Source: an uncultured Candidatus Saccharibacteria bacterium (GTDB taxonomy: Bacteria > Patescibacteriota > Minisyncoccia > Phycocordibacterales > DATDWN01). From it: a DNA stretch of 35,433 nucleotides. Made by a program: the position numbers and the translations under genes. The DNA lies in contig CAZKFS010000001.1 in NCBI GenBank assembly GCA_964552275.1, positions 1 to 35,433 of the forward strand. The letters are read 5' to 3'. The notes below the pieces were generated by a model. The model did not search any database, had not been told where the DNA came from, and saw only the letters and a list, made by a program, of their open reading frames with translations. Below, in pieces: positions 9,066 to 24,462 of this stretch; within the stretch, counting starts at the first letter, position 1; every line of letters begins with the position of its first letter.

Positions 9066-9144
9066 AATTGGTTTAGATAATACAAAGATTAAGAATGTAT
9101 AATTAACCTTGATTATAACAAGATTATTACTTTTAACCAGCACT

Positions 9145-9172
9145 TTGTTGCACTACATGAATCTGCTAGAAT
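9145..9172 (+). promoter_or_regulatory. promoter TTGTTG-16-(TGc)TAGAAT for the plus-strand cassette gene
   Basis: Extended -10 tgcTAGAAT at 9164-9172. AGGAGGAGG follows at 9179-9187. Confidence 0.45.
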
Positions 9173-9241
9173 CAAACTAGGAGGAGGTGTTGTCTGTCTA
9201 TTTGCGACAAAAACCCACCTGTTGGCCGGTTTTTTGAATCG

Positions 9242-9892: not shown

Positions 9893-9935
9893 CCGTCGTT
9901 CGCTAGTAGCGGAAGGCGGTTTTCTTTTTATTTTT
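9892..9935 (+). terminator. intrinsic terminator of the plus-strand cassette gene
   Basis: accg..cgcta-g-tagcg..cggt composite stem followed by ttttctttttattttt. Confidence 0.6.
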
Positions 9936-9973
9936 AAGACTTAGAGAAATATTTGAGGGGTTAAACTCTTACA

Positions 9974-10032
9974 ATTTGGATGAAATCCGACGTTGAGAAT
10001 TTGAAAATATGAGTTCGCCAAATTTAGGAGTT
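9974..10032 (-). repeat. secY 3'-flank repeat element (two modules shared with the fusA 3' flank)
   Basis: atttggatgaaatccgacgttgagaa (9974-9999) resembles 27131-27157. gagttcgccaaatttaggagtt (10011-10032) resembles 639-660, 14721-14739 and 27223-27233. Confidence 0.7.
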
Positions 10033-11304: not shown

Positions 11305-11310
11305 GGTATT

Positions 11311-11751
11311 TTATTTTACTGAACCTCCAGCCTTCTCTATTGCAACCTTGGCTGAACCTGAGACTTGGCAATTCTCAAAGCTAAGTTTCTTGTCGAGTTC
11401 TCCAGTGCCCAAAATCTTTACCTTTGGAAGTGAACCTTTGAACATTTTAACAACGTTGTGCTTTACCAAAGTCTCTGGTGATACAACATCTCCATTTTTA
11501 CAAAGTTTATTCAAAGTACCAATATTTACAACAACAGCTTTTGTTTGGATACTTGTGTTTATGTTTTTGCCTCTTCCTCGTAGTTTAGGAATTCTCTTTA
11601 TGAAATCTCTAATCTCTGGTCTCTTCTTGTGTCCAGCACGAGCGTTTTGACCTTTTGTTCCACGTCCAGCAGTCTTGCCACGTGTTCCTCCACGTCCTAC
11701 TTGTTTTGATTTCTTATTTGGATTAGCTCTTTTTAGGTTGTGTGTTTGCAT
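11311..11751 (-). CDS. rplO: 50S ribosomal protein L15
   Basis: GRGGTRGKTAGRGTKGQNARAG motif. It lies directly after rpsE with no L30 gene between them. Confidence 0.95.
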   Translation of the reverse strand: MQTHNLKRANPNKKSKQVGRGGTRGKTAGRGTKGQNARAGHKKRPEIRDFIKRIPKLRGRGKNINTSIQTKAVVVNIGTLNKLCKNGDVVSPETLVKHNVVKMFKGSLPKVKILGTGELDKKLSFENCQVSGSAKVAIEKAGGSVK

Positions 11752-11752
11752 G

Positions 11753-12334
11753 TTATTTTCTTAGTTTCAACTGACCCAAAGCCTTCACTGCAGCCTTTGC
11801 ATTGTTTACTTTGTTTTTACTTCGAGAAAAGATTTTTGAACTAACTTCGTTGATTCCTGCAAATTCTAAAACTGTTCGAACAGATGAACCTGCTAGAATA
11901 CCCTTACCAGGTGCTCTCATGATAAGAACTCTTGAACTTGAATACTTTGCATCAACTTCGTGAGGAATAGAACCAGTCTTTGTTAGGTTTACTTTGATCA
12001 TGTTTTTCTTGGCATCTCTAACTGCTTTATCGATAGCAACCGGTGTGTCACCTGCTTTACCAAGACCCACTCCAACACGACCCTTTCTATCACCTATAAC
12101 AATACCAACTGAAAAACTAAATCTTCTTCCTCCAGTTACCACACGAGTAACACGTCTGATACTAACTATTTTTTGATCGAACTCAGGTCTAACACGAGCC
12201 TCTCTTCTTGGTGCTGATTTTCTAGAATTCTTTTTGAATTCTCTTGGAGAATGCTGAGCAGGAGAATCTGAAACAGCAGGTGTTGCCACACCTCCCTCAA
12301 CCTTTATTTCTTCTGTAATTATTTCTGGTTCCAT
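11753..12334 (-). CDS. rpsE: 30S ribosomal protein S5 (N-terminal extension)
   Basis: RRVTRVVTGGRRFSFSVGIVIGDRKGRVGVGLGKA motif. Confidence 0.95.
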   Translation of the reverse strand: MEPEIITEEIKVEGGVATPAVSDSPAQHSPREFKKNSRKSAPRREARVRPEFDQKIVSIRRVTRVVTGGRRFSFSVGIVIGDRKGRVGVGLGKAGDTPVAIDKAVRDAKKNMIKVNLTKTGSIPHEVDAKYSSSRVLIMRAPGKGILAGSSVRTVLEFAGINEVSSKIFSRSKNKVNNAKAAVKALGQLKLRK

Positions 12335-12343
12335 AATATTTTA

Positions 12344-12694
12344 TTAAAATTGTAGACCTCCTTCTCTGGCAGAATCTGCTAGAGCCTTAACGCAACCTGT
12401 GTAAATAAACCCTCCTCGGTCAAAAACTACTTTACTTACTTTTAGAGCTTTGCCTTTCTCTGCTATGGTTTTACCAACCAATCCTGCTTTTTCCATCATG
12501 GTCTTGCCTTTAACATCTCTAGAGTGCACGCCGATTATAGTCACACCTGTATCGTCGTTAATAAGCTGTGCTGAAATATGTTTGTTTGATTTGTATACAG
12601 AGAGACGAGGTCTTTCATTAGTACCAGAAATCTGTGTGCGAATTTTCGCATGTCTTCTAGTTCTTTTTTGTATTTTTGCGTTTAATGATTTCAT
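12344..12694 (-). CDS. rplR: 50S ribosomal protein L18
   Basis: RLSVYKSNKHISAQLI ... DRGGFIYTGCVKALADSAREGGLQF. Confidence 0.95.
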   Translation of the reverse strand: MKSLNAKIQKRTRRHAKIRTQISGTNERPRLSVYKSNKHISAQLINDDTGVTIIGVHSRDVKGKTMMEKAGLVGKTIAEKGKALKVSKVVFDRGGFIYTGCVKALADSAREGGLQF

Positions 12695-12707
12695 CTTTTT
12701 TGAAATT

Positions 12708-13241
12708 TTATGCGGTCTTCTTACCTTGTTTTCTCTTTATAACCTCACCTTCGTATCTAATACCTTTTCCTTTGTATGGTTCTGGTTTCTTTAGAGATCT
12801 TACTTTGGCAACGAAATCTCCCACAACTTCTTTATCCATTCCTGTAACAGTAATAACGTTTTTCTCTGCAGTAACTTTCAAAATTTCTGGAATAGGAACA
12901 TTTACTGGATGAGAGAAACCTAGTGCAAGAACCAAGTTTGTTCCCTTTACTTCTGATTTGTAACCAATACCTTCGATAATTAGTTTTCTAACGAAAGGAG
13001 TAGTTGCACCAGCTGTCATGTTCATAATATGAGAAGCGTATGTTCCCCAAAGAGCTTTGTTTTCTAGAGTCTCTCTCTTTGGTGTAAGAGTGATTTCTCC
13101 TGGAGCAATATTGATAACAATATCCTCTTTAAACTTTTTTGAAAGAGTTCCTAGTGGTCCTTTCACAGTCAAAAGGCCGTTCAAAAGTGTTACTTCTGTC
13201 TTTGCTGGGATTGCTATTACTTTTTTACCGATTCGTGACAT
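12708..13241 (-). CDS. rplF: 50S ribosomal protein L6
   Basis: MSRIGKKVIAIP...KGPLGTL start and spc-operon position. Confidence 0.95.
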   Translation of the reverse strand: MSRIGKKVIAIPAKTEVTLLNGLLTVKGPLGTLSKKFKEDIVINIAPGEITLTPKRETLENKALWGTYASHIMNMTAGATTPFVRKLIIEGIGYKSEVKGTNLVLALGFSHPVNVPIPEILKVTAEKNVITVTGMDKEVVGDFVAKVRSLKKPEPYKGKGIRYEGEVIKRKQGKKTA

Positions 13242-13259
13242 TTTATTATTTAAAATTTA

Positions 13260-13649
13260 TTACCATATTTTGAACATAGCTTCTCCTCCCACTTTTGCCT
13301 CCTTTGCCATCTTGTCAGTCATAATACCCTTTGGAGTTGAAAGTATGAGAGAACCAACACCGTTCTTAACTTTTCTGATATCTTTTGTTTTGTTGTAAAT
13401 TCTTTTTGAAGTCTTTGAAACTCTCTCTACACCAGAAATACGAGATGCACCATCATCATAGATCAAACCAACCTCAATCCACTTTGCTATTTTCTTTCCT
13501 TTCTTTCCAAAAGATTTTATAAATCCTTCTTTCAAAAGAACATCTAGAATAGCGAGCTTTAGCTTTGAATGAGGAAAAACTACTGACTCTTTCTTTGAAT
13601 CAGAAGCATTCTTCATTCTTATAATCATGTCTGCGATTGGGTCTGTCAT
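13260..13649 (-). CDS. rpsH: 30S ribosomal protein S8
   Basis: MTDPIADMIIRMKNA start and spc-operon position. Confidence 0.95.
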   Translation of the reverse strand: MTDPIADMIIRMKNASDSKKESVVFPHSKLKLAILDVLLKEGFIKSFGKKGKKIAKWIEVGLIYDDGASRISGVERVSKTSKRIYNKTKDIRKVKNGVGSLILSTPKGIMTDKMAKEAKVGGEAMFKIW

Positions 13650-13724
13650 GTATTTTATATTATATCTGGGTAGTTTCTCTTCCCTAGTGGGTCAAGACTT
13701 GCCTAGTCAACTTGTCCAATCTAC

Positions 13725-13843
13725 CAGGATTTTTGTTCGAGTTCAAGGCTCGAGGTTTTGTTTCTGACCAAGCTGTACATTTAGTACTACGCGTGGAGGA
13801 AACAAAACCGAGAACGAAGAAATCGGACAAAAAGACGGTAGAT
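13725..13843 (-). repeat. ~120-nt intergenic element abutting the rpsN stop; homologous to 22088-22208
   Basis: Aligned by eye to the rpsJ 3' flank: shared aggatttttgtt, gaccaa, tgtaca..gtac, aaaaccgagaac and acaaaaagac blocks. Internal perfect 11-bp stem ggttttgtttc (13754-13764) / gaaacaaaacc (13799-13809). Confidence 0.75.
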
Positions 13844-14029
13844 TTACCAGGAGGACTTTTTCACGCCTGGAATTTTTCCCTCATTGGCAAGTTCACGGAA
13901 GCAGATTCTGCACAAAGCAAAGTCTCTCATAAATGCTCTTCCGCGTCCACATCTAAAGCATCGATTAGTAGCCCGAGTTGAGAATTTCGGTTTTTTTGCT
14001 GCTCTTGCTTTTACTGATGTTTTTGCCAT
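13844..14029 (-). CDS. rpsN: 30S ribosomal protein S14, zinc-binding type Z
   Basis: 61 aa with CFRCGR...CRIC two CxxC pairs. Position between L5 and S8. Confidence 0.95.
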
Positions 14030-14034
14030 AAATT

Positions 14035-14094
14035 AAGGAATGCAATGACTATAATTTATGAGCATGTCGGACTACTGTCCGACGGCCATTCCTT
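14035..14094 (-). promoter_or_regulatory. structured rpsN 5' leader hairpin ending 5 nt before the start codon
   Basis: Outer stem aaggaatg (14035-14042) / cattcctt (14087-14094). Inner stem gtcggac (14066-14072) / gtccgac (14077-14083). Confidence 0.45.
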
Positions 14095-14130
14095 ATAATC
14101 AAATAAAAAAGCTCTTTTGAAGCTGGGGTA

Positions 14131-14159
14131 ATACTAGCAATTATGGTTTAAAAAGTCAA
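14131..14159 (-). promoter_or_regulatory. promoter module copy 1: TTGACT-17-(TGc)TAGTAT, upstream of rpsN
   Basis: Minus strand ttgactttttaaaccataattgctagtat. It resembles the modules at 21450-21478 and 22620-22648 beyond the hexamers. Confidence 0.6.
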
Positions 14160-14172
14160 CGTATACGACGAT

Positions 14173-14199
14173 GCCCGGGATCCTCTCGGTATCCCGGGC
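14173..14199 (-). other. perfect 9-bp GC-rich inverted repeat 3' of the orphan ORF (possible terminator, no U tract)
   Basis: gcccgggat - 9 nt - atcccgggc, starting 14 nt after the ORF stop codon. Confidence 0.5.
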
Positions 14200-14212
14200 A
14201 CAGGTCAGGTGG

Positions 14213-14575
14213 TCAGCACGTACCCCAGGTGAAGACTGTGGCAGACTCCAGATCGGAGTAGGTCCTCTGAATCGAGAACCTCTTTCCGAGCCTCACGACC
14301 CTCAAGACCACCGATGAATTACTATCGATGCTCTGAAGGAGGAAATCGGCGAGTTTCACCTGGGCGGCGAGCGAAAACTCGCCGAAGGTGTCATGAATAT
14401 CCTTCCTGGTTGTCTGGAAGGTGACATAGTTCTCACCCACCCTGATGTAGGTGTGGTAGAGTCTAGACCTACTTGTGAGATCCAGACCATTCAACTCCTC
14501 ATGGACAATGTAAAGCGGGTTCCTATGGTCCTCATGTCGAACCACAGGAAGAACGACTTCTCTTACTTTTTCCAT
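14213..14575 (-). CDS. orphan hypothetical protein (120 aa) in a G+C-rich insert between rplE and rpsN
   Basis: ATG at 14573-14575 is preceded by AGGTGG with a 5-nt spacer, so the track's longer start at 14638 is less likely. I recognise no family motif. I counted 33/60 G+C in 14221-14280. Confidence 0.6.
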   Translation of the reverse strand: MEKVREVVLPVVRHEDHRNPLYIVHEELNGLDLTSRSRLYHTYIRVGENYVTFQTTRKDIHDTFGEFSLAAQVKLADFLLQSIDSNSSVVLRVVRLGKRFSIQRTYSDLESATVFTWGTC

Positions 14576-14652
14576 TTTGACCACCTGTTTTGCAGAACTT
14601 ATGGCACGTCGCAGCCATTTGTCTGCGAAAAAGAACATGCGACGTTTCTATA

Positions 14653-14681
14653 ATTATACCATATATTACATAAAAATACAA
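14653..14681 (-). promoter_or_regulatory. promoter TTGTAT-17-(TGg)TATAAT for the orphan ORF
   Basis: Minus strand ttgtatttttatgtaatatatggtataat, immediately downstream of the rplE terminator. Confidence 0.55.
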
Positions 14682-14682
14682 G

Positions 14683-14717
14683 ATAATAAAAACCCTTGTT
14701 TAAAGGGTTTTTATTAT
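14683..14717. terminator. intrinsic terminator after rplE
   Basis: ataataaaaaccctt - loop - aagggtttttattat. Confidence 0.7.
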
Positions 14718-14743
14718 CTTTTCGCCAAACTTGGAAGTTGTAG

Positions 14744-15346
14744 CTATTTCTTTGGAGCTCGAGACCCGCCTTTTTTGTTTGCATCCGCCTTAGGCTTTGC
14801 CTCTTTTGTTTCTACTTTTTTAAATGGGAATCCTAGATGTGTTAGGAAAGCTTTTGTCTCCTTTGGATCTTTTATGTTAGTTACAACTGCAACTGAAAGT
14901 CCGAAAACATCTTTCAAGTCCTCGTCAGATGATTCTGGGAAGATTGTGTTTTCTTTGATACCTAGAGTATAGTTCCCCATCTCATCGATACCGCTCGCAG
15001 AAATACCACGGAAGTCTTTTGTTCTAGGAAGAGCTATGTTAACTAGTCTGTCTAGGAAATCATACATTCTCTGTCCTCTAAGAGTTATTTGCATTCCAAC
15101 TGGATCTCCTTCTCGAACTTTGAAAGCTGCGATAGAAATCTTTGCACCTTTTCTAGCTGGCTTTTGTCCTGTGATTTTTGAAAGTCTGTCTGCAACAAGC
15201 TCTATCTTCTTTTTGTCTTTGATTGATCCGATACCAGAAGCTATCACCACTTTCATTATCTTTGGTGCTTGCATCGCGTTTTTGTAGCCAAACTCACCTT
15301 TTAGAGCTTCGAATGACTTTGCTGTTTTTGATTTAATAGTTTCCAT
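14744..15346 (-). CDS. rplE: 50S ribosomal protein L5 (Lys-rich C-terminal tail)
   Basis: KGEFGYKNAMQAPKIMKVVIASGIG motif and spc-operon position. Confidence 0.95.
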   Translation of the reverse strand: METIKSKTAKSFEALKGEFGYKNAMQAPKIMKVVIASGIGSIKDKKKIELVADRLSKITGQKPARKGAKISIAAFKVREGDPVGMQITLRGQRMYDFLDRLVNIALPRTKDFRGISASGIDEMGNYTLGIKENTIFPESSDEDLKDVFGLSVAVVTNIKDPKETKAFLTHLGFPFKKVETKEAKPKADANKKGGSRAPKK

Positions 15347-15370
15347 AACTTTCGTAGCTTACGCCTAATA

Positions 15371-15619
15371 TTAATTTGCCTTCGCCTTTTTCTTGGTTTT
15401 CTTCTCTGATAATTTAACGTTTGATACGTGGATAGGCATTGTCTTGTCGATTATCTGACCCTTTTCTCCACTCTTTCGAGGTTTCTGGTGTACCTTTAAA
15501 ACATTGACCCCAGAAACAATCACTTTGTTTTCTTTTGGTAATGACTTAACAACAGTGCCTGTTTTGCCCTTATCCTTACCTGAGAGAACTATTACTTTGT
15601 CGTCTTTTTTTACATGCAT
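15371..15619 (-). CDS. rplX: 50S ribosomal protein L24
   Basis: MHVKKDDKVIVLSGKDKGKTGTV (KOW motif). Confidence 0.95.
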   Translation of the reverse strand: MHVKKDDKVIVLSGKDKGKTGTVVKSLPKENKVIVSGVNVLKVHQKPRKSGEKGQIIDKTMPIHVSNVKLSEKKTKKKAKAN

Positions 15620-15636
15620 AATATTGAAATTAAGTT

Positions 15637-16014
15637 TTATACAACCTCAGGTGCTAGAGAAATAATCTTTTGATAACCAGCATCACCGATTTCTCGTGGG
15701 ATTGGACCGAATACACGACCTGCTACTGGCTCTTTCTTCTTTGCATCTTTCATAACAATAACAACTGCGTTCTCATCAAATCTTATGTATGATCCGTCTT
15801 TTCTTCTGAAAGGAGCTTTTTGTCTAACAACGATAGCGTAAAGTACGTCTTTCTTCTTTGTTGTTTTTCTTGGTTCAGCTTTTTGTACAGAGATAACCAC
15901 TAGTTCGCCGATAGATGCGTATCTCTTCTTTGAACTTCCAAGCACTTTGAAAACTCGTCCGATCTTTCCTCCGGAGTTGTCAGCTATTTTGACGATTGAT
16001 TGTGGTTGGACCAT
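15637..16014 (-). CDS. rplN: 50S ribosomal protein L14
   Basis: VKIADNSGGK motif and position. Confidence 0.95.
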   Translation of the reverse strand: MVQPQSIVKIADNSGGKIGRVFKVLGSSKKRYASIGELVVISVQKAEPRKTTKKKDVLYAIVVRQKAPFRRKDGSYIRFDENAVVIVMKDAKKKEPVAGRVFGPIPREIGDAGYQKIISLAPEVV

Positions 16015-16028
16015 GGTAGTTTGTTAAA

Positions 16029-16292
16029 TTAAATTACTCTGAATTTCTTATCTTTTGATATTGGAGCACATTCTTCTATAGTGACCTTGTCCCCTACTTT
16101 CTTTGTGTTTCCAGCATCATGCGCTTTAAACTTTTTGTTTACAGTAGTGTATTTACCATACTTTGGGTGTTTTACAAAGCGGCTCACTTCAACAACAACT
16201 GTGTCCTTCATTTTGTCAGATACTACAGTTCCAACAACTTTTCTAGAAGTTTTTGCTGTGACTTGTTCTTTTGTTGTTTTTGTTTTTGCCAT
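16029..16292 (-). CDS. rpsQ: 30S ribosomal protein S17
   Basis: VVGTVVSDKMKDTVVVEVSRFVKHPKYGKY. Confidence 0.95.
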   Translation of the reverse strand: MAKTKTTKEQVTAKTSRKVVGTVVSDKMKDTVVVEVSRFVKHPKYGKYTTVNKKFKAHDAGNTKKVGDKVTIEECAPISKDKKFRVI

Positions 16293-16303
16293 GTTTTTTA
16301 AAA

Positions 16304-16486
16304 TTACTTAGTTTTTGTTTTCATTACTGTAAGAATTCTCGCGATATCTTTCTTCAAGCTCTTACCCTCTTTTACGTTTCTTGTATTACTTCCTGCAACT
16401 GAAAAGCGGAAATTCCTCAAAGCCAATCGCTTCTCTCCAAGCATTGTGACCAACTCTTTTGTGCTTTTGTTTAATATTTCTTTCAT
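16304..16486 (-). CDS. rpmC: 50S ribosomal protein L29
   Basis: 60 aa with STKELVTMLGEKRLALRNFRF. Position between L16 and S17. Confidence 0.9.
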   Translation of the reverse strand: MKEILNKSTKELVTMLGEKRLALRNFRFSVAGSNTRNVKEGKSLKKDIARILTVMKTKTK

Positions 16487-16492
16487 GGCTTT

Positions 16493-16918
16493 TTAGTTAT
16501 GAGTAGCTGAGATTATTTTCGTATTCAAAGGAAGTTTTGTTCCAGCTTTTCTTAGAGCTTCTCTTGCTACAGCATCTGTAACACCATCAACTTCAAAAAT
16601 CACTCTTCCTGGTTTTACTGGAGCACAGTATCCAAACAAATCCCCCTTACCCTTTCCAAGCTTTACTTCCGCAGGTTTCTTTGTAAGTGGCATGTCTGGG
16701 AAAATTCTAATCCAAACCTTTCCTGTCTTACCAACAGCTCGAGACAAAGCTTTTCTAGCCGCCTCTATTTGGTTAGACATTATACGAGCAGGAGTTATAG
16801 CCTTTAGACCATGTGAACCAAAAGCCACTGTTGTACCACGAGAAGCAACACCAACCTTGTTAGCGTTTTTTCTCATTGTGTGCCATTTTCTATATTTTAC
16901 TTTTTTAGGTAACAACAT
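16493..16918 (-). CDS. rplP: 50S ribosomal protein L16
   Basis: MLLPKKVKYRKWH...FGSHGLKA. Confidence 0.95.
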   Translation of the reverse strand: MLLPKKVKYRKWHTMRKNANKVGVASRGTTVAFGSHGLKAITPARIMSNQIEAARKALSRAVGKTGKVWIRIFPDMPLTKKPAEVKLGKGKGDLFGYCAPVKPGRVIFEVDGVTDAVAREALRKAGTKLPLNTKIISATHN

Positions 16919-16932
16919 GGTAGTTAATTAAA

Positions 16933-17589
16933 TTATTTTGAGAATATTTCTCCTTTGTATATCCAAACTTTTATTCCCAATCCTCCGTATGGAAGTCTTG
17001 CCTCAAATTTTGCAAAATCAACATCTGCTCGGAAAGTCTGAAGAGGGATTCTTCCTCTCTTTATTTTCTCTTGGCGAGCCATTGAAGCACCTCCAAGTCT
17101 TCCTGACAACTCTATCTTTACACCCAAAACATCTCTGTTTGCCATAACCTTCTCAACCATTTGCTTTGTTACACGTCTGAAAGGAAGTCTTTTTTCCAAA
17201 CCATCTGCAACCATTTGAGCAACTATCATAGCGTTTGATTCTGGAGATTTAACTTCTTTTATATCAACTTTTACTTCACCACCAGCTGAAAGTTTCTTCT
17301 TTGATAGAAAAGCCAAGATATCATTCTTTAACTTCACTGCGCCATCACCAGATCGTCCAATGATCATACCTGGTCTTGATGTCTCAATAATAATTCGAAG
17401 AACCTTCTCTCCTCTTTCCATCTCTATGTTACTTATGTATAGGCCTCGAAGTTTCTTCTCTAGGTGTTCTCTCAAAAGAACGTCGCTCTTTAGAAACTCT
17501 TTGTATTTACCTTTTACTCCAAACCATCGAGACTTCCAGTCTCTGATAATTCCTAGTCTATGTGAATATGGGTGTACTGTATGAGTCAT
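16933..17589 (-). CDS. rpsC: 30S ribosomal protein S3
   Basis: HPYSHRLGIIRDWKSRWF and a KH domain. S10-operon position. Confidence 0.95.
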   Translation of the reverse strand: MTHTVHPYSHRLGIIRDWKSRWFGVKGKYKEFLKSDVLLREHLEKKLRGLYISNIEMERGEKVLRIIIETSRPGMIIGRSGDGAVKLKNDILAFLSKKKLSAGGEVKVDIKEVKSPESNAMIVAQMVADGLEKRLPFRRVTKQMVEKVMANRDVLGVKIELSGRLGGASMARQEKIKRGRIPLQTFRADVDFAKFEARLPYGGLGIKVWIYKGEIFSK

Positions 17590-17590
17590 A

Positions 17591-18022
17591 TTATTTTGTG
17601 ATTTTCTTAGCTCTTGGTTTTTTTACAGATTTAGCTTCTGCAACTTCTGTAGCTTTAACCTCTTTTACAATCTTTACTTTCTTCTTTGAATCAGCCTCAC
17701 CAAGCTCAACAAAAATAGCTGATGTTCTCTTTCGTATTGGATGAGCAGAACCACGAGCAGCTGGCATTCGTCTGTACATTATTTTTCCACCATCTACTTT
17801 TATAGTTTTAACTATAAGGTTTTCTGTTGGAATATCTTGAGCCTTTGCGTTTGCAAGAGCTGACATAATAAGAGTCTTGATAGGAAGAGAAGCTTTCTTT
17901 GCAACGAAATCTAGGTTTACCAAAACCTCAGAAACTTTCTTTCCTCTCACAGCATTTGCAACCAATCGCATTTTGCGAGGAGCTTGTCTGAAATTTGATA
18001 ATGTTGCTTTTGCTGTTGCCAT
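17591..18022 (-). CDS. rplV: 50S ribosomal protein L22 (Lys-rich C-terminal extension)
   Basis: FRQAPRKMRLVANAVRGKKVSEVLVNLDF. Confidence 0.95.
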   Translation of the reverse strand: MATAKATLSNFRQAPRKMRLVANAVRGKKVSEVLVNLDFVAKKASLPIKTLIMSALANAKAQDIPTENLIVKTIKVDGGKIMYRRMPAARGSAHPIRKRTSAIFVELGEADSKKKVKIVKEVKATEVAEAKSVKKPRAKKITK

Positions 18023-18031
18023 ATAAATATA

Positions 18032-18379
18032 TTATTTCTTCTTAGCGTCAGTTGTAGCGGCCTTTGCAGATTGAGCAGCAGCTATCTCACCCTCTTTCTT
18101 CTTCTGCTCTAGCTCCTTCTGCATTTTACCTCCGTGTTTTATGAACTTTTTAGTAGGAGAAAACTCGCCTAGTCTGTGACCCACCATATCTTCATTTACG
18201 GAAACTTCAATATGAACCTTGCCGTTATGAACACCAAAAATAAAACCTACCATCTCAGGAGAGATCACGCATGCACGAGACCAAGTCTTAATAACCCCAG
18301 TTTCACTGGATTTTTTACCCTCAATTTTCTTGAGTAGTCTCTCGTCTACGTATGGACCTTTTTTAGATGATCTTGTCAT
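18032..18379 (-). CDS. rpsS: 30S ribosomal protein S19 (C-terminal extension)
   Basis: [29 protein letters not shown]. Confidence 0.95.
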
Positions 18380-18475
18380 TTTAATTTGTTGAAAACAAAA
18401 ACCACATTGTTAGTGGTACTGACTAGCTAATACCTCAAACAGAATGTATAAGACGTGTAGTCTTACGTGGCGTCT

Positions 18476-18504
18476 ATACTATACAAAATGCCTCAGAATG
18501 TCAA
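18476..18504 (-). promoter_or_regulatory. promoter TTGACA-17-TAGTAT upstream of rpsS
   Basis: Minus strand ttgacattctgaggcattttgtatagtat. It lies directly downstream of the UUCG-loop terminator of the RNA candidate. Confidence 0.55.
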
Positions 18505-18520
18505 CACATTTAATCAATGT

Positions 18521-18748
18521 AAGGAAAAGGCCTCCCGAAGGAGGCCGTGTTGGAGGGAGAGGGCCTAGAGCACCCCTGCGCCATGGGTGGTAGTCGCCCA
18601 AGGTAACTAGTATTTACCGGATTTTCGCAGTGCCCCAATCGACACAAGGACCATAGTTTTTCACTCTTTCATCAAACGAGTTGCAACTCGCTGAATCCCC
18701 AAGCGTTGCGGTCTGGTCCAAGGATGTTGCCACCACCTCTCCCCCAAA
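18521..18748 (-). ncRNA. unclassified G+C-rich structured RNA candidate (~225 nt) between rplB and rpsS
   Basis: No ORF longer than about 24 codons on either strand. Closing helix gggagagg (18555-18562) pairs with cctctccc (18736-18743). Second helix GGUGG/CCACC. Internal hairpins include CGAGU-UGCA-ACUCG. The minus-strand 3' end is GGCCUCC-UUCG-GGAGGCC plus UUUUCCUU (18521-18546). I counted 41/60 G+C in 18541-18600. Class unknown. Confidence 0.5.
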
Positions 18749-18785
18749 ATAAGACTATACTTTTTAATACATAAGTCAATTAAAC

Positions 18786-18816
18786 AAAAACACCGTTCGA
18801 GTTCGAACGGTGTTTT
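18786..18816. terminator. strong bidirectional terminator directly after the rplB stop
   Basis: aaaaacaccgttcga-gt-tcgaacggtgttttt, a perfect 11-bp stem with flanking A and T runs. Confidence 0.8.
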
Positions 18817-18821
18817 TGTTT

Positions 18822-19664
18822 TTACTTCTTTTTACCTACCTTCCTTCTACTTACGATGAATTTATTTGAATATTTCTTTGGAGTTCTAGATTTCTGTCCC
18901 TTACCTGTTGGTTTACCGTACACAGAGATAGCTCTCTTGCGTCCTCGGCCTTGTCTACCCTCTCCACCTCCGTATGGGTGATCAACTGGGTTTTGAGCAG
19001 TACCTCGAACTGTAGGGCGAATACCCAACCATCGTGATCGTCCAGCTTTTCCTAGGTTTACTAGTCTGTTTTCATTGTTTGAAACTTCTCCAACAGATGC
19101 CCATGCAGTGTCTTTTACTTTTCTAACTTCTGTTGAAGGAAGTTTGATATCCACGTAACCAGCGTCCTTTGCAATAACTTCTACGAAGTTTCCAGCTGAA
19201 CGAGCTAGTTTTGCTCCACCTTGTGGCTTAACCTCTACGTTGTAAACAAAAGTTCCAATAGTTATATTTTTAAGAGGTAATCTGTTTCCAGATTTTATTT
19301 CTGCTGTTTCAGATGTGATGAGTGTATCTCCAACTCTGACAGATGATGGTAGAAGAACATATCTCTTTGCACCGTCTCTGTACTGAGCAAGACCAATAAA
19401 TCCTGATCGGTTTGGATCGTATTCTACTGTTTTTATAGTATAAGGAACGTTTATTTTGTCGTATTTGAAATCAATCTCTCTAAACAGTCTTTTTGCTCCA
19501 CCTCCTTTGTGTCTAGTAGTTATTTTACCATGGTGGTTTCGGCCCATCTTTCTTCTAAAACCGTGAGTTAGTGACTTCACTGGTTCTGTAGCTGTAACAA
19601 AGTCACCAAAAGAGATGGTTGTCATTCCTCTACGACTTTTTGATGTTGGTTTATATCTCTTCAT
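18822..19664 (-). CDS. rplB: 50S ribosomal protein L2
   Basis: 280 aa with GGGAKRLFREIDF and HPYGGGEGR motifs. Confidence 0.95.
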   Translation of the reverse strand: MKRYKPTSKSRRGMTTISFGDFVTATEPVKSLTHGFRRKMGRNHHGKITTRHKGGGAKRLFREIDFKYDKINVPYTIKTVEYDPNRSGFIGLAQYRDGAKRYVLLPSSVRVGDTLITSETAEIKSGNRLPLKNITIGTFVYNVEVKPQGGAKLARSAGNFVEVIAKDAGYVDIKLPSTEVRKVKDTAWASVGEVSNNENRLVNLGKAGRSRWLGIRPTVRGTAQNPVDHPYGGGEGRQGRGRKRAISVYGKPTGKGQKSRTPKKYSNKFIVSRRKVGKKK

Positions 19665-19674
19665 GGTAATTTTA

Positions 19675-19956
19675 TTATATGTTCTCTATTTGAGTCCCCT
19701 TTTTAAGATATATGTAGGCTTTCTTATATCCTGATTTTTTACCGACTTTTCCTCTAACAAAAACTTTCTTTGCATGAATAGTAACTGTACTTATCTTGAT
19801 TGGGTTGATTTTGTATTTCTCGATAAAAGCTTTCTCGATTAGAACTTTTGTTGATTTTGGATCAACTTCAAATACGTAAACTGAAGACTCTGCAGTACGA
19901 GTTGCCTTCTCTGTGATGTGTGGACTTATTAAAACTGAGTTAAGATCTTTTTTCAT
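19675..19956 (-). CDS. rplW: 50S ribosomal protein L23
   Basis: ISPHITEKATRTAE.. and position between L4 and L2. Confidence 0.9.
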   Translation of the reverse strand: MKKDLNSVLISPHITEKATRTAESSVYVFEVDPKSTKVLIEKAFIEKYKINPIKISTVTIHAKKVFVRGKVGKKSGYKKAYIYLKKGTQIENI

Positions 19957-19980
19957 AGCTGTCGTAGCTTGCGCCTAATG

Positions 19981-20685
19981 TTAATTTGCCTTCGGCGCTT
20001 CCACCTTCTTATTTGATAATTTTTCTCCTATTTTTTGACTGATCTGAGGAATACCTTTCTCTGGATTAGAAATAACTACATACTTGTATTTCATTAGGTG
20101 AACTGGACTGATGTTTCTTATTTCATCAACGATCAAGTTGTTGAAGTTAGCAAAACTTTTTTCTGTATTAGCATCTTTTGAAGACAAAGCAACATATGCT
20201 GAGTTTCTTTTCTTTGAAAGAAGATCTTTGAATCCTGAAACTTTTGAAAGTGAAGATAGAACCTCTCTAGCGCCTTTTGTTTTGATAGCTTTCAAAGACA
20301 TATCATCCACAAACAGAACATGACCATTCTTGAATTTATCAGAAAGAATAGTGTAAAGAGCTTTTGCCTTCATTTTCTTATTTATTTTTCTATCAAAATT
20401 CTTGTCACTTCTAGGACCATGAGTAACACCTCCGTGTCTCCATATAGGTGAACGTGTAGAACCGTGTCGAGCACGACCAGTTCCCTTTTGTTGCCAAGGT
20501 TTCTTACCTCCTCCACTTACCTCACCTCTGTTTTTTGTGTGAGCAACGTTTGGACGAGCAATTGATTCCATAGAAACAACAACTTGGTGAACCAAGTCAG
20601 CATTCCACTTCAAACCAAAAACTGACTCTGGCAAAGCCACTTTTCCTGATTCCTTTCCTTTTTGATTGTATACTACAGCTTCCAT
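19981..20685 (-). CDS. rplD: 50S ribosomal protein L4
   Basis: SGGGKKPWQQKGTGRARHGSTRSPIWRHGG motif. Confidence 0.95.
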   Translation of the reverse strand: MEAVVYNQKGKESGKVALPESVFGLKWNADLVHQVVVSMESIARPNVAHTKNRGEVSGGGKKPWQQKGTGRARHGSTRSPIWRHGGVTHGPRSDKNFDRKINKKMKAKALYTILSDKFKNGHVLFVDDMSLKAIKTKGAREVLSSLSKVSGFKDLLSKKRNSAYVALSSKDANTEKSFANFNNLIVDEIRNISPVHLMKYKYVVISNPEKGIPQISQKIGEKLSNKKVEAPKAN

Positions 20686-20695
20686 ATTTTTATTA

Positions 20696-21307
20696 TTATC
20701 CGTTTAGTTCAACTAGAGTTCCTCGTCTTCCAGATATAGCACCTCGTACAAAAATCTCTCCAGTTTCTGGTTTAACAGAAACAACAGTTAGACCTTTAGT
20801 TGTGATCCTATCACCACCCATTCTTCCGGCCATTCTCTTGCCTTTTGCAACACGACCTCCATCTCTACCTCCTCCACCAATAGAACCTGGCTCACGCTCT
20901 GAGTGCTTCTGTCCGTGTGAACGAGGTCCACCTTTGAATCCATGTCTTTTGACAGTACCTTGAAAGCCCTTACCTTTTGATAGTGAAGATGCAGTTATCA
21001 TATCTCCAGCTGAAAATGTAGAAAGATCAATACTATCTCCAACTTTAAATGCAGGTTCGCCCTCTGTTCTAAATTCTCTGAGGTACATGTAGTTACCACC
21101 CTTCATCTGACCTTTCTGCGCCTTGTTAATATTTTTCTCTGCTCTCTCTCCAAAACCAACTTGAACAGCATTGTAACCATCTGTAGAAACAGTTTTGATA
21201 GCAGTAACAACCATAGGTCCAGCTTTTATAGCTGTGACAGGATGAACAACCCCTTTGTCGTCAAAGATTTGGGTCATATTTAGTTTTGTTCCTAAAATAA
21301 ATTTCAT
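20696..21307 (-). CDS. rplC: 50S ribosomal protein L3
   Basis: I chose the start at MKFILGTKLNMTQIFD (ATG 21305-21307). The 23 residues upstream in the track are probably leader read-through. FKGGPRSHGQ motif. Confidence 0.9.
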   Translation of the reverse strand: MKFILGTKLNMTQIFDDKGVVHPVTAIKAGPMVVTAIKTVSTDGYNAVQVGFGERAEKNINKAQKGQMKGGNYMYLREFRTEGEPAFKVGDSIDLSTFSAGDMITASSLSKGKGFQGTVKRHGFKGGPRSHGQKHSEREPGSIGGGGRDGGRVAKGKRMAGRMGGDRITTKGLTVVSVKPETGEIFVRGAISGRRGTLVELNG

Positions 21308-21391
21308 ATTATTTTGATTTCTTGGAAACATTTTTCGGACAGTAATGAGAAAAGTGTTTTTCCCAACATTGCCCATCGCTAGTCTCCTGAA

Positions 21392-21425
21392 TCCGCCTCT
21401 TCGGCGGACCCGCCGACGAGGCGGG
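21392..21425 (-). promoter_or_regulatory. two tandem GC-rich hairpins in the rplC 5' leader
   Basis: tccgcc-tcttc-ggcgga (21392-21408) and cccgcc-gacga-ggcggg (21409-21425), each a 6-bp stem with a 5-nt loop. Confidence 0.45.
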
Positions 21426-21449
21426 AAAGTCCATTTGAAAGACTTGACT

Positions 21450-21478
21450 ACATTAGCAGATATCGGTTTTTAATTCAA
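21450..21478 (-). promoter_or_regulatory. promoter module copy 2: TTGAAT-17-(TGc)TAATGT, upstream of rplC
   Basis: Minus strand ttgaattaaaaaccgatatctgctaatgt, similar to copies 1 and 3. Confidence 0.55.
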
Positions 21479-21545
21479 GTCCTTTTAAAATAAATAAAAA
21501 AAACCGTGAATCAGGCAGAAGCCAACCCATAGGTTTTGTGTGGTC

Positions 21546-21579
21546 CCGCGGGCTGGTGGGGTGCTCCCACCGCCCGCGG
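21546..21579 (-). other. 14-bp GC-rich hairpin 3' of the secreted-protein ORF (terminator-like, no U tract)
   Basis: ccgcgggc(t)ggtggg - gtgct - cccaccgcccgcgg. Confidence 0.5.
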
Positions 21580-21610
21580 TCATATGTGTTCTCGGTGGGG
21601 ACTTGAAGGA

Positions 21611-21970
21611 TCAGCCCACCGCGAACGAGCCCGTCGTGTTCGAGGTGCCAATCGCACCAACCCAGGCCGGCGCCGAGGAGTGTTGTCTGTCTCCCAGGCC
21701 GACGGTGTTGTTGGGGCGTATCGACATGTCGGCGATGGTGTCGACTTCCGGAAGGGCGTCCTCGTAGGTGTTGATCGAGTGTTGAACAGTAAATCCTGGC
21801 ATGACGACTTCCATCAAGGAGGGTTCCACCTGGACATCCTCCTCGATCATCGTCACGCTGCCGACCGCGATGGTGACGATGTTGTGCTTGTTGTCATCGA
21901 CCTTCTGGACCGGTGACGACGGAAGGAGCAGCGCGAACACCGCCCCGAGTAGAACCAAGAGCTTCCTCAT
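21611..21970 (-). CDS. small secreted hypothetical protein (119 aa) in a high-G+C insert between rpsJ and rplC
   Basis: AGGAGG lies 4 nt upstream of the ATG. Signal peptide MRKLLVLLGAVFALLLPSS. Third codon positions are visibly G/C-rich. I counted 43/60 G+C in 21541-21600 (3' hairpin region just outside the ORF) and 41/60 in 21661-21720 (inside the ORF). Confidence 0.65.
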   Translation of the reverse strand: MRKLLVLLGAVFALLLPSSPVQKVDDNKHNIVTIAVGSVTMIEEDVQVEPSLMEVVMPGFTVQHSINTYEDALPEVDTIADMSIRPNNTVGLGDRQHSSAPAWVGAIGTSNTTGSFAVG

Positions 21971-22051
21971 GAGTCCTCCTAATAGTTAGAACGAATGGTC
22001 ACCAGACCACCCTATTTCCTATGGTATAACAACAAATATTTAAGTGCAAAC

Positions 22052-22077
22052 AAAAAACCACCTCTCGGTGGTTTTTT
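22052..22077. terminator. terminator aaaaaaccacc-tctc-ggtggtttttt
   Basis: Same hairpin family as 23022-23047 and 34410-35. It lies after the rpsJ 3' element. Confidence 0.75.
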
Positions 22078-22087
22078 GTTTATTTCT

Positions 22088-22208
22088 GAGGATTTTTGTT
22101 GAAGTTCGAAGTTCGCAGTTTTTATGTACGACCAAAATGTACAAAAGTACATTGCGGGAGTAGATAAAACCGAGAACAAAGAAATTCTACAAAAAGACCG
22201 GAAATAAC
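22088..22208 (-). repeat. ~120-nt intergenic element abutting the rpsJ stop; homologous to 13725-13843
   Basis: See the 13725-13843 feature. Inner perfect hairpin aatgtac-aaaa-gtacatt (22136-22153). Outer stem gtttttat / ataaaac at the position equivalent to the 11-bp stem of the other copy. Confidence 0.75.
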
Positions 22209-22598
22209 TTAGATGATTTTTACGTCGATATTAACCCCTGACGGAAGTGACATGTTTGTCAGAGCTTCCATTATCTTTGGTGTAGGGTTTAGGATATCGA
22301 TTACTCTTTTGTGAGTTCTCATTTCAAACTGCTCACGAGCATTTTTGAAAACGAAAGCAGATCGGTTTACTGTATATTTCTTTATTTCTGTAGGAAGAGG
22401 AATAGGTCCTTCTACTTTTGCATCATATCGAAGAGCTGTATCTATAATCTGCTTTACAGACAAATCAAGAATCTTGTATTCATAAGCACGAACGCGAATT
22501 CTGAGCTTTGAAATAACATCTGATTTAGCTGCCTTTGGAGCAGCTTTTGCTGTAGTCTTTTTTACAGATGCCTTTTTAGTTGTTTCCTTTGCAGTCAT
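22209..22598 (-). CDS. rpsJ: 30S ribosomal protein S10 (about 30-aa Lys/Ala-rich N-terminal extension)
   Basis: LRIRVRAYEYKILDLSVKQIIDTA core and position ahead of rplC. Confidence 0.95.
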   Translation of the reverse strand: MTAKETTKKASVKKTTAKAAPKAAKSDVISKLRIRVRAYEYKILDLSVKQIIDTALRYDAKVEGPIPLPTEIKKYTVNRSAFVFKNAREQFEMRTHKRVIDILNPTPKIMEALTNMSLPSGVNIDVKII

Positions 22599-22619
22599 GT
22601 CAATTTAGTTGTACCCCAG

Positions 22620-22648
22620 ATACTAGCAGATAATGGTTTTTTGTTCAA
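22620..22648 (-). promoter_or_regulatory. promoter module copy 3: TTGAAC-17-(TGc)TAGTAT, upstream of rpsJ
   Basis: Minus strand ttgaacaaaaaaccattatctgctagtat. Confidence 0.6.
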
Positions 22649-22678
22649 GGGGTGTGAACATTTTAATTCAATCTTATC

Positions 22679-22706
22679 TTGACAAAATGCAAACAACTGT
22701 TATAAT
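22679..22706 (+). promoter_or_regulatory. near-consensus promoter TTGACA-16-(TGt)TATAAT
   Basis: ttgacaaaatgcaaacaactgttataat. GGGAG follows at 22714-22718 and the ATG at 22726. Confidence 0.7.
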
Positions 22707-22725
22707 GTAATTAGGGAGTTGAAAA

Positions 22726-22926
22726 ATGTTAATCTGGATTTTGAGCACTGGGCTAACAGTACTACTGACCATATTCGGCACCATTTTCGTCGGGTCGGTA
22801 GTCGTCTGTACCGCATTGATGGGTGGAGACAAGAGAAATTCTGTGTACTCTTACTCACTTCAATCTCTGCTCGTTTCTTTGCTAATACTAATAGGACTCC
22901 TCGCACTCAAGGCAAAATTCGCTTGA
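22726..22926 (+). CDS. 66-aa two-TM hydrophobic peptide, antisense to the operon direction
   Basis: MLIWILSTGLTVLLTIFGTIFVGSVVVCTAL-MGGDKRNSVYSYSLQ-SLLVSLLILIGLLALKAKFA. It is the only one of three overlapping ORFs that has an SD plus an ATG. Confidence 0.6.
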   Translation: MLIWILSTGLTVLLTIFGTIFVGSVVVCTALMGGDKRNSVYSYSLQSLLVSLLILIGLLALKAKFA

Positions 22927-22978
22927 TGGTGGGTGGCCCTAAAAAGGATGTCCGCTAGAATTAACGAGTTCATCACGA

Positions 22979-23004
22979 GGGCTGCTCCGGCAGTCCTTTC
23001 TTTT
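22979..23004 (+). terminator. terminator of the small peptide transcript
   Basis: gggctgc-tccg-gcagtcc stem followed by tttctttt. Confidence 0.5.
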
Positions 23005-23021
23005 ATGTAAAATATCATTTC

Positions 23022-23047
23022 AAAAAACCACCTTTCGGTGGTTTTTT
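23022..23047. terminator. terminator aaaaaaccacc-tttc-ggtggtttttt after tuf
   Basis: Perfect 5-bp GC core extended by A/T runs. Confidence 0.75.
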
Positions 23048-23090
23048 GAAAACTTTTTAAAGTTAAGAATTCTTCTTGAAAGGGCTGTGA

Positions 23091-24296
23091 CTAAGCAATA
23101 ATCTTAGTAACAACTCCAGCTCCAACAGTCTTACCTCCCTCTCGAATAGCAAACTTAGTATTATCCTCTAGAGCAACTGGTGCTACTAGTTTAACTTTGA
23201 ATGTAACTTGATCTCCTGGCATAACCATTTCTACTCCCTCATTTAGAGTCACATCTCCTGTAACGTCTGTAGTTCGGATATAGAATTGTGGTTTGTAACC
23301 AGAGAAGAATGGTGTGTGTCTTCCCCCTTCTTCTTTCTTCAAGATGTAAACCTCAGCTGTAAACTCTGTGTGTGGAGTCACTGACTTTGGTTTTGAAAGA
23401 ACCTGACCTCGGTGAATTTCTTCTTTCTTTGCACCTCTAAGTAGGATTCCGGCGTTATCTCCAGCCTCTCCTTGGTTTAGAGATTTGTTGAACATTTCGA
23501 TACCAGTAACTGTGTATTTCTGTGTATCCTTTAGACCAACACATTCGATTTCTTCACCTACTTTCACGATTCCTCTCTCGATTCTTCCTGTTACCACTGT
23601 TCCTCTTCCTTCAATTGAGAAAATGTCTTCAACTGGCATAAGGAATGGCTTATCAAGATCTCTTTCTGGAACTGGGAAGTATGTATCTAGAGCTGTTGCA
23701 AGATCTAGAACTTTCTTTGCCCACTCGTCATCGTTGTTAGCTGATTCAAGAGCTTTCAATCCTGATCCTCTAATAATAGGTGCGCCTGCTCCGTCGAAAC
23801 CTTGTTTTGTAAGGAGTTCTCGAACTTCCTCCTCAACTAGATCGATAAGCTCTGCATCTGGCACCATGTCACATTTGTTTAGGAAAACAATGATCTTTGG
23901 TACTCCAACTTGTTTAGCAAGTAGAACATGCTCTCTTGTTTGAGGCATCACACCGTCTGTAGCTGCTACCACTAGCACTGCACCGTCCATTTGAGCGGCA
24001 CCAGTAATCATGTTTTTGATGTAGTCAGCGTGTCCAGGAGCATCTACGTGAGCATAGTGTCTTGTAGGTGTCTCGTATTCGTTGTGAGAAAGAGCAATAG
24101 TAATTCCTCTTGCTTTTTCCTCTGGAGCAGAGTCGATTTCACCAACTCCTTTTAGTTTAGCTCCGTAACCATTTCCCTGTCGTGAAAGAACAGTCAAAAT
24201 AGCTGCTGTTAATGTTGTCTTACCATGGTCAACGTGACCGATAGTTCCCACATTCATGTGTGGCTTACTTCGATCGAATTGTGCTGATTCTGCCAT
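23091..24296 (-). CDS. tuf: elongation factor Tu
   Basis: [22 protein letters not shown] motifs; 401 aa. Confidence 0.97.
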
Positions 24297-24462
24297 ATTG
24301 TTTTTTATTATTATATTAGTAAATAAAAACTAAGCCATTTTGGAAACTCCAAAAACTCAATGCTCGAGAAACCTGAATTTCGAGAACTTCCAATAGGAAA
24401 AATCGCGCTTAAGCGACAAACAACATGTTATTAAAATAAAAACAAATAGTCAAGCAAAACCC

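Follow-up and report, generated by a model that had tools for sequence, protein, structure and literature searches.

The extended -10 (TGn) promoters of Gram-positive bacteria, recognized by sigma-70/SigA, carry a TRTG motif in the so-called -16 region. In Escherichia coli, the S10, spc and alpha operons have separate promoters and the S10 leader is bound by L4, and the corresponding cluster of Bacillus subtilis contains internal promoters. Two further known types are the cassette promoter (Pc) of integrons and the outward-facing promoters of insertion sequences (IS). To our knowledge, the promoter architecture in Parcubacteria is essentially unstudied, and nothing on Parcubacteria ribosomal-operon promoters was found in the literature. 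Here, the putative promoters of the S10-spc ribosomal protein cluster on contig CAZKFS010000001.1 of an uncultured Candidatus Saccharibacteria bacterium (assembly GCA_964552275.1) were analysed. The window is this entire 35.4-kb contig (35,433 nucleotides, nt); the genome bin comprises 642 kb with 37.5% G+C in 53 contigs. An earlier reading of the letters of the window, called below the sequence-only reading, had proposed that one promoter module is reused upstream of rpsN, rplC and rpsJ, each time just downstream of an insert. According to the present analysis, the sites are probably resident sigma-70-type extended -10 promoters of a split S10-spc cluster, in which the cargo occupies gaps between resident terminators and resident promoters. 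A true twin pair is formed by the rpsJ and rplC sites only. The following four putative promoters were considered, the last of which had been missed by the sequence-only reading:

22620-22648, minus strand: rpsJ promoter, TTGAAC, 17-nt spacer, TGcTAGTAT; member of the twin module
21450-21478, minus strand: rplC promoter, TTGAAT, 17-nt spacer, TGcTAATGT; second member of the twin module
14131-14159, minus strand: rpsN promoter, TTGACT, 17-nt spacer, TGcTAGTAT; family gTTGACTT-N12-TTGcTAGTAT
18476-18504, minus strand: rpsS promoter, TTGACAT-N9-TTTTGTATAGTAT; genus form tGTTGACAT-N9-TTTTGTATAGTAT

The three sequences noted earlier were confirmed on the minus strand, each with TTGA, a 17-nt spacer and an extended -10 TG, the extended -10 being TGCTAGTAT or TGCTAATGT. 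TGC stands ahead of the -10 in all three, placing TG at -15/-14, and the -35 elements of rpsJ, rplC and rpsN (TTGAAC, TTGAAT and TTGACT, respectively) resemble TTGACA. The spacer was 17 nt in the three sites and in 27 of 27 instances in relatives, and the -10 elements (TAGTAT, TAATGT and TAGTAT) are of the form TAnnnT. The sites are intergenic, co-oriented with the downstream gene and kept in position among relatives. The -10 end of the rpsJ promoter lies 21 nt upstream of the ATG at 22598, and the rplC promoter is followed by a leader of 142 nt.

The pattern TTGA-N16-TGCTARTRT was detected 3 times in the window compared with 0.02 expected occurrences, and none of 100 dinucleotide shuffles reached 3; therefore, the three sites are not a chance set. 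In the 642-kb genome the pattern occurred 4 times, 3 of them in the cluster. The fourth, at C3 12884, was picked out by reading the 30 genome-wide matches to TTGA-N16-TGnTAnnnT; nothing was found by Rfam downstream of this other TGCTAGTAT promoter. The general promoter form of the genome, determined from intergenic matches to TTGA-N19-TAnnnT, was cTTGACa, an A/T-rich N17 spacer and TGnTAtaaT. TG was enriched in these intergenic promoter-like sites (T 59%, G 47%). Since the general form includes TGn, the extended -10 is generic here and the sites fit the sigma-70 class. The -10 TAGTAT is common to all four unit promoters (rpsJ, rplC, rpsS and rpsN), and among the 30 generic extended -10 sites it was present in rpsJ, rpsN and one other site only.

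The sites share with the extended -10 promoters of Gram-positive bacteria the TTGAnn -35, the 17-nt spacer, TG at -15/-14, TAnnnT and T at -17, as well as the intergenic position on the strand of the gene. In contrast to those promoters, the non-consensus TTGAAy and TAGTAT, C at -16 and the spacer are conserved here, the twin element is limited to two sites per genome in one family, and the promoters are predicted from sequence.

The twin module, which has the rpsJ and rplC sites as its only members, reads CTTGAAyAAAAAAnnnnTATCTGyTAGTAT. The two sites were identical at 14 of the 20 unconstrained positions, a value equalled but not exceeded among the 435 pairs of extended -10 sites, whereas rpsN agreed with the twins at 9-10 of the 20 free positions and ranked 105 and 59 of 435. 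In a gapped comparison of 133,903 pairs, rpsJ/rplC was in the top 9 and the pairs containing rpsN in the top 0.4-0.9%. With a matrix built from 27 orthologues of the rpsJ and rplC promoters in relatives, the copies of the window being excluded, the scores in this genome were 42.6 bits for rpsJ and 36.1 bits for rplC. The next best match scored 20.1 bits, and rpsN, with 12.4 bits, was among or below unrelated promoters (13.5-20.1 bits). The third-best match, C24 9383, was considered as a ribosomal RNA (rRNA) promoter and rejected, no rRNA motif being nearby. On class matrices of their own, the rpsN site reached 29.2 bits and the rpsS site 40.0 bits (next genome match 21.0), each scoring best on its own matrix.

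The exclusivity of the twin module was determined by scanning whole genomes with TTGAAYAAAAAANNNNTATCTGYTAGTAT, allowing up to 3 mismatches, with the reversed pattern as a control. In 21 genus genomes including that of the window, 0-2 matches were obtained in each and 18 genomes were positive; the reversed pattern had no match in the same 21 genomes. All 25 matches in the genus were on the rpsJ contig, and all those with flanks read were the rpsJ or the rplC promoter. Among 150 other genomes of the order, a perfect match was found in one, belonging to a second genus of the same family; of the remaining 149, only 3 had a match with 3 mismatches, none near tuf or these ribosomal genes. The two strong matrix matches together with the genus-wide exclusivity show, therefore, that the twin module does not represent the organism's housekeeping consensus; the extended consensus was not found upstream of many genes. 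The weight-matrix search suggested by the sequence-only reading thus upheld the module for rpsJ and rplC and removed rpsN from it, the genus consensus of rpsN being a different sequence. The rpsN and rpsS promoters are independent and older; beyond the generic elements and the unusual -10 TAGTAT, they have nothing in common with the twins.

Smaller elements of the sequence-only reading fared less well. AAACC, given there as part of the shared pattern, was not kept when orthologous promoters in relatives were compared. ATCTGCTAGAAT is indeed present in the plus-strand site at 9145-9172, as had been stated, but a meaningful link to the module was not confirmed: ATCTGCTAG (at 9161) has 6 copies in the genome. 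Similarly, the reverse-complementary 8-mers TACCCCAG and CTGGGGTA do follow the rpsN and rpsJ sites, respectively, but were not confirmed as meaningful, CTGGGGTA/TACCCCAG having 19 genome copies. They were treated as chance: TACCCCAG is part of the conserved rpsN leader (tACCCcAGCTT), and CTGGGGTA after the rpsJ promoter is not conserved.

Orthologues of the rpsJ promoter were present in 17 of 18 same-genus loci as cTTGAAyAAAAAAnnATTATCTGyTAGTATCT, whatever lies upstream. The rplC orthologue, the same 29-mer followed by a conserved leader, was found wherever the rplC start was readable (13 of 14 in the anchored set), and the rpsN and rpsS orthologues in 14 of 14 loci. Conservation, taken as the frequency of the most common base in each column and averaged over the columns, was as follows:

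rpsJ promoter: upstream 30 nt, 0.45; promoter 29 nt, 0.85; spacer, 0.82; downstream 30 nt, 0.54
rplC promoter: upstream 30 nt, 0.45; promoter 29 nt, 0.82; spacer, 0.80; downstream 30 nt, 0.69
rpsN promoter: upstream 30 nt, 0.42; promoter 29 nt, 0.75; spacer, 0.61; downstream 30 nt, 0.61
rpsS promoter: upstream 30 nt, 0.42; promoter 29 nt, 0.85; spacer, 0.75; downstream 30 nt, 0.57

These position-fixed islands of conservation (0.75-0.85 compared with 0.42-0.45 upstream) support the earlier proposal that the promoters restart transcription after terminators inside the S10-spc cluster, a role that is very probably real. Spacer positions 13-16 of the twins were variable among relatives. The rpsN promoter was detected also in other families of the order, forming an order-wide family, and was found also in genomes in which rplE adjoins or overlaps rpsN (gap of 50 in genome G016 and -11 in G026). 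In other families of the order tuf, rpsJ and rplC are tightly packed, without such promoters.

Five junctions of the cluster are abnormally wide in the window, and all other cluster junctions are tight in the genus. The determined gap widths were:

tuf/rpsJ: 492 bp in the window; 121-1335 bp in the genus (22 in genome G009)
rpsJ/rplC: 901 bp in the window, counted to the true rplC start; 168-2095 bp in the genus
rplB/rpsS: 442 bp in the window; 442-2550 bp in the genus
rplE/rpsN: 714 bp in the window; 50-2874 bp in the genus
secY/adk: 889 bp in the window

The content of four of these gaps in the window was:

22649-23017, plus strand: tuf/rpsJ cargo, with an antisense open reading frame (ORF) at 22726-22926 for a 66-residue two-helix membrane protein
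21479-22046, minus strand: rpsJ/rplC cargo, with ORF119 (119 residues, 21611-21970), 60% G+C, third-position G+C (GC3) of 0.81 and a signal-peptide-like N-terminus
18505-18781, minus strand: variable content of rplB/rpsS, a G+C-rich segment of about 210 nt that contains no ORF and has a promoter-like site and a terminator (18529-18546) of its own
14160-14679, minus strand: rplE/rpsN cargo, with the orphan ORF141 (14213-14638)

The tuf/rpsJ cargo contains a perfect TTGACA-16-TATAAT promoter at 22679-22706, and the rplE/rpsN cargo ends in a GC hairpin at 14173-14199 (-27.9 kcal/mol) that lacks a U tract. The ends of the rplB/rpsS segment can pair (GGGAGAGG / CCTCTCCC), and in this gap Rfam returned terminator-like noise and nothing above it. 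No Pfam match was obtained for the five window cargo ORFs scanned, and in a word-indexed search of 5.8 billion proteins ORF119 and ORF141 each matched only themselves.

In comparisons of the junctions with those of relatives, DNA matches were confined to the 5' edge (the terminator and, in places, a 3' element) and the 3' edge (promoter plus leader). No DNA similarity to relatives was detected in the cargo between the conserved edges at tuf/rpsJ, rplB/rpsS and rplE/rpsN. Of the cargo ORFs with at least 60 amino acids, 83 of 93 had no relative among the other inserts. In genome G002, the arrangement tuf[121]rpsJ[168]rplC consists of terminator and promoter with no cargo. The promoters are thus constant in position while the inserts vary from 22 to 2874 bp or are absent, and therefore the promoters were not carried in by the inserts. 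Positions 8472-24296 of the window and the loci L031-L049 share the same four or five S10-spc junctions as insertion hot spots genus-wide, with contents that are nearly all specific to one species, and rplB/rpsS and rpsJ/rplC are hot spots in other families of the order as well. The S10-ORF119-L3 order was found again in a 167-kb NCBI contig and in partial versions in five Logan assemblies from separate sequencing runs; being present in 6 other public assemblies, the locus is not an assembly chimera or artefact. It is contained in the DNA sequencing runs SRR10388235, -237, -240, -246 and -248.

Foreign-looking cassettes were not peculiar to the ribosomal cluster. About 25 G+C-rich islands (at least 55% G+C) with orphan-looking, GC3-rich ORFs lacking mutual similarity were counted genome-wide, for example C2 23101-23600, C5 19101-19850, C26 4701-6600 and C39 1501-2400. 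In addition, DNA of 50% G+C or more is found just downstream of 13 of the 30 TTGA-N16-TGnTAnnnT sites. Such islands and cassettes with textbook signals are thus a feature of the whole genome. Separately, contig C50 (2.5 kb) has 64-68% G+C throughout with GC3 up to 0.87 and is probably contamination of the genome bin.

The genes around the sites and the hairpins and leaders between them are listed below:

23091-24296, minus strand: tuf
23018-23051, no strand assigned: bidirectional intrinsic terminator after tuf, AAAAAACCACCGAAAGGTGGTTTTTT, -20.9 kcal/mol, z -6.3
22209-22598, minus strand: rpsJ, ATG at 22598
22088-22208: 3' element of roughly 120 nt between rpsJ and its terminator
22047-22082, no strand assigned: terminator ending the rpsJ unit, near-identical to that of tuf, -21.5 kcal/mol, z -7.2
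21308-21449, minus strand: rplC leader, with an early small hairpin, two genome-specific GC hairpins and the conserved long stem-loop GACTAGCGATGGGCAATGTTGGG...CATTACTGTCC
20696-21307, minus strand: rplC
between rplC and rplB, minus strand: rplD and rplW
18822-19664, minus strand: rplB
18782-18821, no strand assigned: terminator-like hairpin directly after rplB, called on the plus strand; its palindromic stem is T-rich on the operon strand too
18380-18475, minus strand: rpsS leader, with the conserved ACCACTAACAATGTGGTTTTTGTTTT hairpin and a U tract
18032-18379, minus strand: rpsS, first gene of a stretch running to rplE
14744-15346, minus strand: rplE
14680-14720, minus strand: intrinsic terminator directly after rplE
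14030-14130, minus strand: rpsN leader, with the conserved AGCTTnAAAGAGCT hairpin and a U tract, then a stem-loop ending about 17 nt before the start codon
13844-14029, minus strand: rpsN, followed by rpsH and onward to secY
10033-11304, minus strand: secY
8472-9143, minus strand: adk

According to this layout, the cluster would be read as four transcription units: rpsJ alone, rplC-rplD-rplW-rplB, rpsS to rplE, and rpsN to secY. Transcription would end at the terminator-like hairpin after the last gene of each unit and be restarted by the next extended -10 promoter, which in 3 of the 4 units (rplC, rpsS and rpsN) is followed by a structured leader. A gap that follows a resident terminator and ends at the next resident promoter would then be a spot in an essential cluster where an insertion is not polar. 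Due to this lack of a polar effect, orphan or foreign cargo could be kept and turned over there. The stereotyped bidirectional terminator AAAAAACCACC-N4-GGTGGTTTTTT was found at 8 genome loci, 3 of them in the window (23025-23044, 22055-22074 and 34413-34432), and the same hairpin type forms the 5' edge of the junctions in relatives (tuf and rpsJ terminators). These two unit terminators were the ones folded, and both are strong.

As in E. coli and B. subtilis, a long ribosomal cluster is cut into units by promoters, with regulatory leaders after some of them. In contrast to the S10-spc-alpha clusters of these models, the breaks are before rplC, rpsS and rpsN and not before rplN and rpsM, rpsJ would form a unit by itself, every unit ends in a terminator-like hairpin, and variable orphan cargo lies in the gaps.

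In the rplC leader, GACTAGCGATGGGCAATGTTGGG...CATTACTGTCC is common to eleven species and the early hairpin carries a U tract. The consensus fold has 23 pairs, 6 of which show compensatory changes; the leader of the window has two extra G+C-rich hairpins at 21400-21430. The frame through the leader is non-coding in relatives, being interrupted by stop codons, and the leader is kept together with the promoter in the genus and the sister genus. Rfam gave no match for it. As a conserved structured RNA, the rplC leader is a candidate for ribosomal-protein autoregulation. The rpsN leader had a fold energy of -22.9 kcal/mol (z -5.2) over 14030-14100, and the rpsS leader 74-88% identity to 10 relatives over about 115-133 nt, with shorter matches in two more. 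Described leaders of this type include the L20 leader attenuator of B. subtilis (PMC1865079) and those in a survey of ribosomal-protein leaders (PMC3616713). The 5' leaders at rplC, rpsS and rpsN resemble ribosomal-protein autoregulatory leaders in being conserved and structured and in having an early attenuator-like hairpin with a U tract; they differ in matching no Rfam family and in modest covariation (6 of 23 pairs). No Rfam family at gathering score and, by ARAGORN, no transfer RNA was detected anywhere in the window.

In relatives (loci L031, L034, L037, L042 and L043), an extra element of about 100-130 nt was observed between the conserved rplC or rpsN leader and the start codon. This element (e.g. 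...ttcgaggcgg...cttacaagt.gtaa.gtgacgag...) stands ahead of more than one gene and resembles a short structured insertion present in several copies.

Several points weigh against resident promoters of a split cluster as a complete account. Promoter activity and unit boundaries are predictions from sequence and conservation. The rpsJ promoter is dispensable, as the genus member G009 has none: its tuf/rpsJ gap of 22 nt is without terminator and without promoter. At rpsN, the hairpin at 14173-14199 lacks a U tract, so read-through from the rplE/rpsN cargo is possible and the restart role is less clear. The spacer conservation of the twins exceeds what sigma-70 contacts alone explain, and a regulator site or a DNA-shape requirement could account for it. 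Finally, the identity between the twins equals the identity between orthologues, with no concerted evolution, and thereby duplication and convergence cannot be separated.

The last point is based on the following values. The identity of the rpsJ and rplC promoters was 21.2/29 within a genome and 21.8/29 between genomes, and that of orthologous promoters across genomes 23.1/29 for rpsJ and 21.0/29 for rplC. Concerted evolution or gene conversion between the twins was rejected due to the lack of a within-genome excess of identity (permutation p 0.94). Both sets thus act like a single family of sequences subject to a common constraint, and no trace of recent conversion was seen. In the sister genus (genome G079), the module and the leader were present at rplC, and before rpsJ only a terminator and a degenerate TTGTCT-like stretch were seen. 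From this one sister-genus genome there is a hint that the copy at rplC is the older one and that at rpsJ is derived. For the pair, an old duplication is most likely, maintained by the same functional constraint so that both units would be driven alike. The sequence-only reading had suggested as one option that the module was duplicated to compensate for operon fragmentation; this is possible for the rpsJ/rplC pair alone, and the duplication would date to the genus or family ancestor and not to the present inserts.

It is conceivable, although rather doubtful, that the spacer (A-tract and TATCTG) is a dedicated regulator site or a requirement of RNA polymerase (RNAP), and that the twins are alike by shared regulation and not by descent. 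In the twins, the conservation of the spacer (0.80-0.82) equals that of the hexamers, non-consensus bases are kept (TTGAAy, TAGTAT), and both the equal identity of twins and orthologues and the occurrence of TAGTAT in all four unit promoters fit this explanation. However, no regulator of the twin spacer was identified, the site as read from its sequence has no clear two-fold symmetry, and the rpsS and rpsN promoters have other spacers. Such regulation would in any case be an addition to the promoter explanation and not a replacement of it. An extended version is unlikely: the twin 29-mer would be a dedicated operator-promoter, in which a factor or a lineage-specific RNAP feature reads the A-tract and TATCTG and co-regulates S10 (NusE) with the L3-L2 unit, and the conserved terminator-promoter pairs would be stable landing pads for the continual gain and loss of orphan, often G+C-rich genes in this family.

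That there is no special module, the sites being ordinary housekeeping-consensus promoters alike by chance, is improbable. The extended -10 and TTGA are generic in the genome, unrelated promoter pairs can be equally alike (C6 22691 with C26 5703, 14/20), and the rpsN site is no nearer to the twins than many generic pairs are to each other. Against this, rpsJ and rplC keep the full 29-nt consensus including the spacer genus-wide and only there, and 3 of the 4 genome matches to TTGA-N16-TGCTARTRT are inside this cluster. The explanation by chance is refuted for the rpsJ/rplC pair and holds in good part against counting rpsN in the module.

It is very improbable that the 29-mers are recombination or landing sites which steer cargo insertion just upstream, and are not, or not only, promoters. 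The cargo always lies within about 5-40 nt of the module and insertions recur at the same four or five junctions throughout the genus and the order. On the other side, the cargo is not known to contain any recombinase- or integrase-like gene, the Pfam scan having covered the five window ORFs and not the cargo of relatives, and no direct repeats or shared cargo ends were seen. Moreover, the rplB/rpsS and rplE/rpsN junctions are equally variable with different promoter sequences, and G+C-rich islands with orphan-looking ORFs occur also at about 24 other places of the genome.

The spread of the module with the inserts, proposed as the other option by the sequence-only reading, by which each foreign cassette would bring an outward-facing promoter, can hardly be maintained: each site in this genome does lie at the downstream edge of an insert and the inserts, which carry promoters and hairpins of their own, are self-contained, but the same promoters stand unmoved in relatives with unrelated cargo or none, no copy was found off the rpsJ contig in the 21 genomes searched or travelling with cargo to non-orthologous sites, and conserved DNA gives way to variable DNA at about -35 to -40, so that the promoter falls within the conserved part next to the gene. 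The arrangement is similar to integron Pc and IS promoters in that a promoter adjoins variable, self-contained cassettes; it differs in that the promoter is backbone, would drive the resident downstream gene and not the cargo, and never moves, and in that no integrase, attachment sites or repeated cassette ends were found.

With the sites taken as resident promoters, the order of events is corrected: the operon would already have been cut into units bounded by terminators and promoters, and variable cargo occupies the gaps. The type of element is an ordinary one and not new; its twin is lineage-specific and unusually constrained. Conserved, position-anchored promoter sequences are thereby obtained for an uncultured lineage, including a family-specific twin and a shared non-consensus -10 TAGTAT. 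They can help to annotate the transcription units of related genomes, and constraint on promoter spacers can be tested on them.

One more promoter-like sequence, TTGAAC-17-TGgTAGATT, was observed at 13718-13746 (minus strand) inside the 194-nt rpsN/rpsH gap. The predicted 5' untranslated region of rpsJ is only about 14 nt. The ribosomal starts at 22598, 21307, 18379 and 14029 have no Shine-Dalgarno sequence ahead of them (aaattgacATG, aaaataatATG, aaattaaaATG and ccttaatttATG, respectively). In contrast to the ribosomal genes, ORF119 (start 21970) has a strong AGGAGG ahead of its start.

Look-alike promoter pairs recur in the genome. The promoter-like site upstream of tuf (24425-24453, minus strand) has a near twin at C7 19460-19488 (minus strand), identical at 17 of 22 free positions, which precedes a basic ORF of 51 amino acids. 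Another set comprises C7 2593, C19 9002 and C9 3613.

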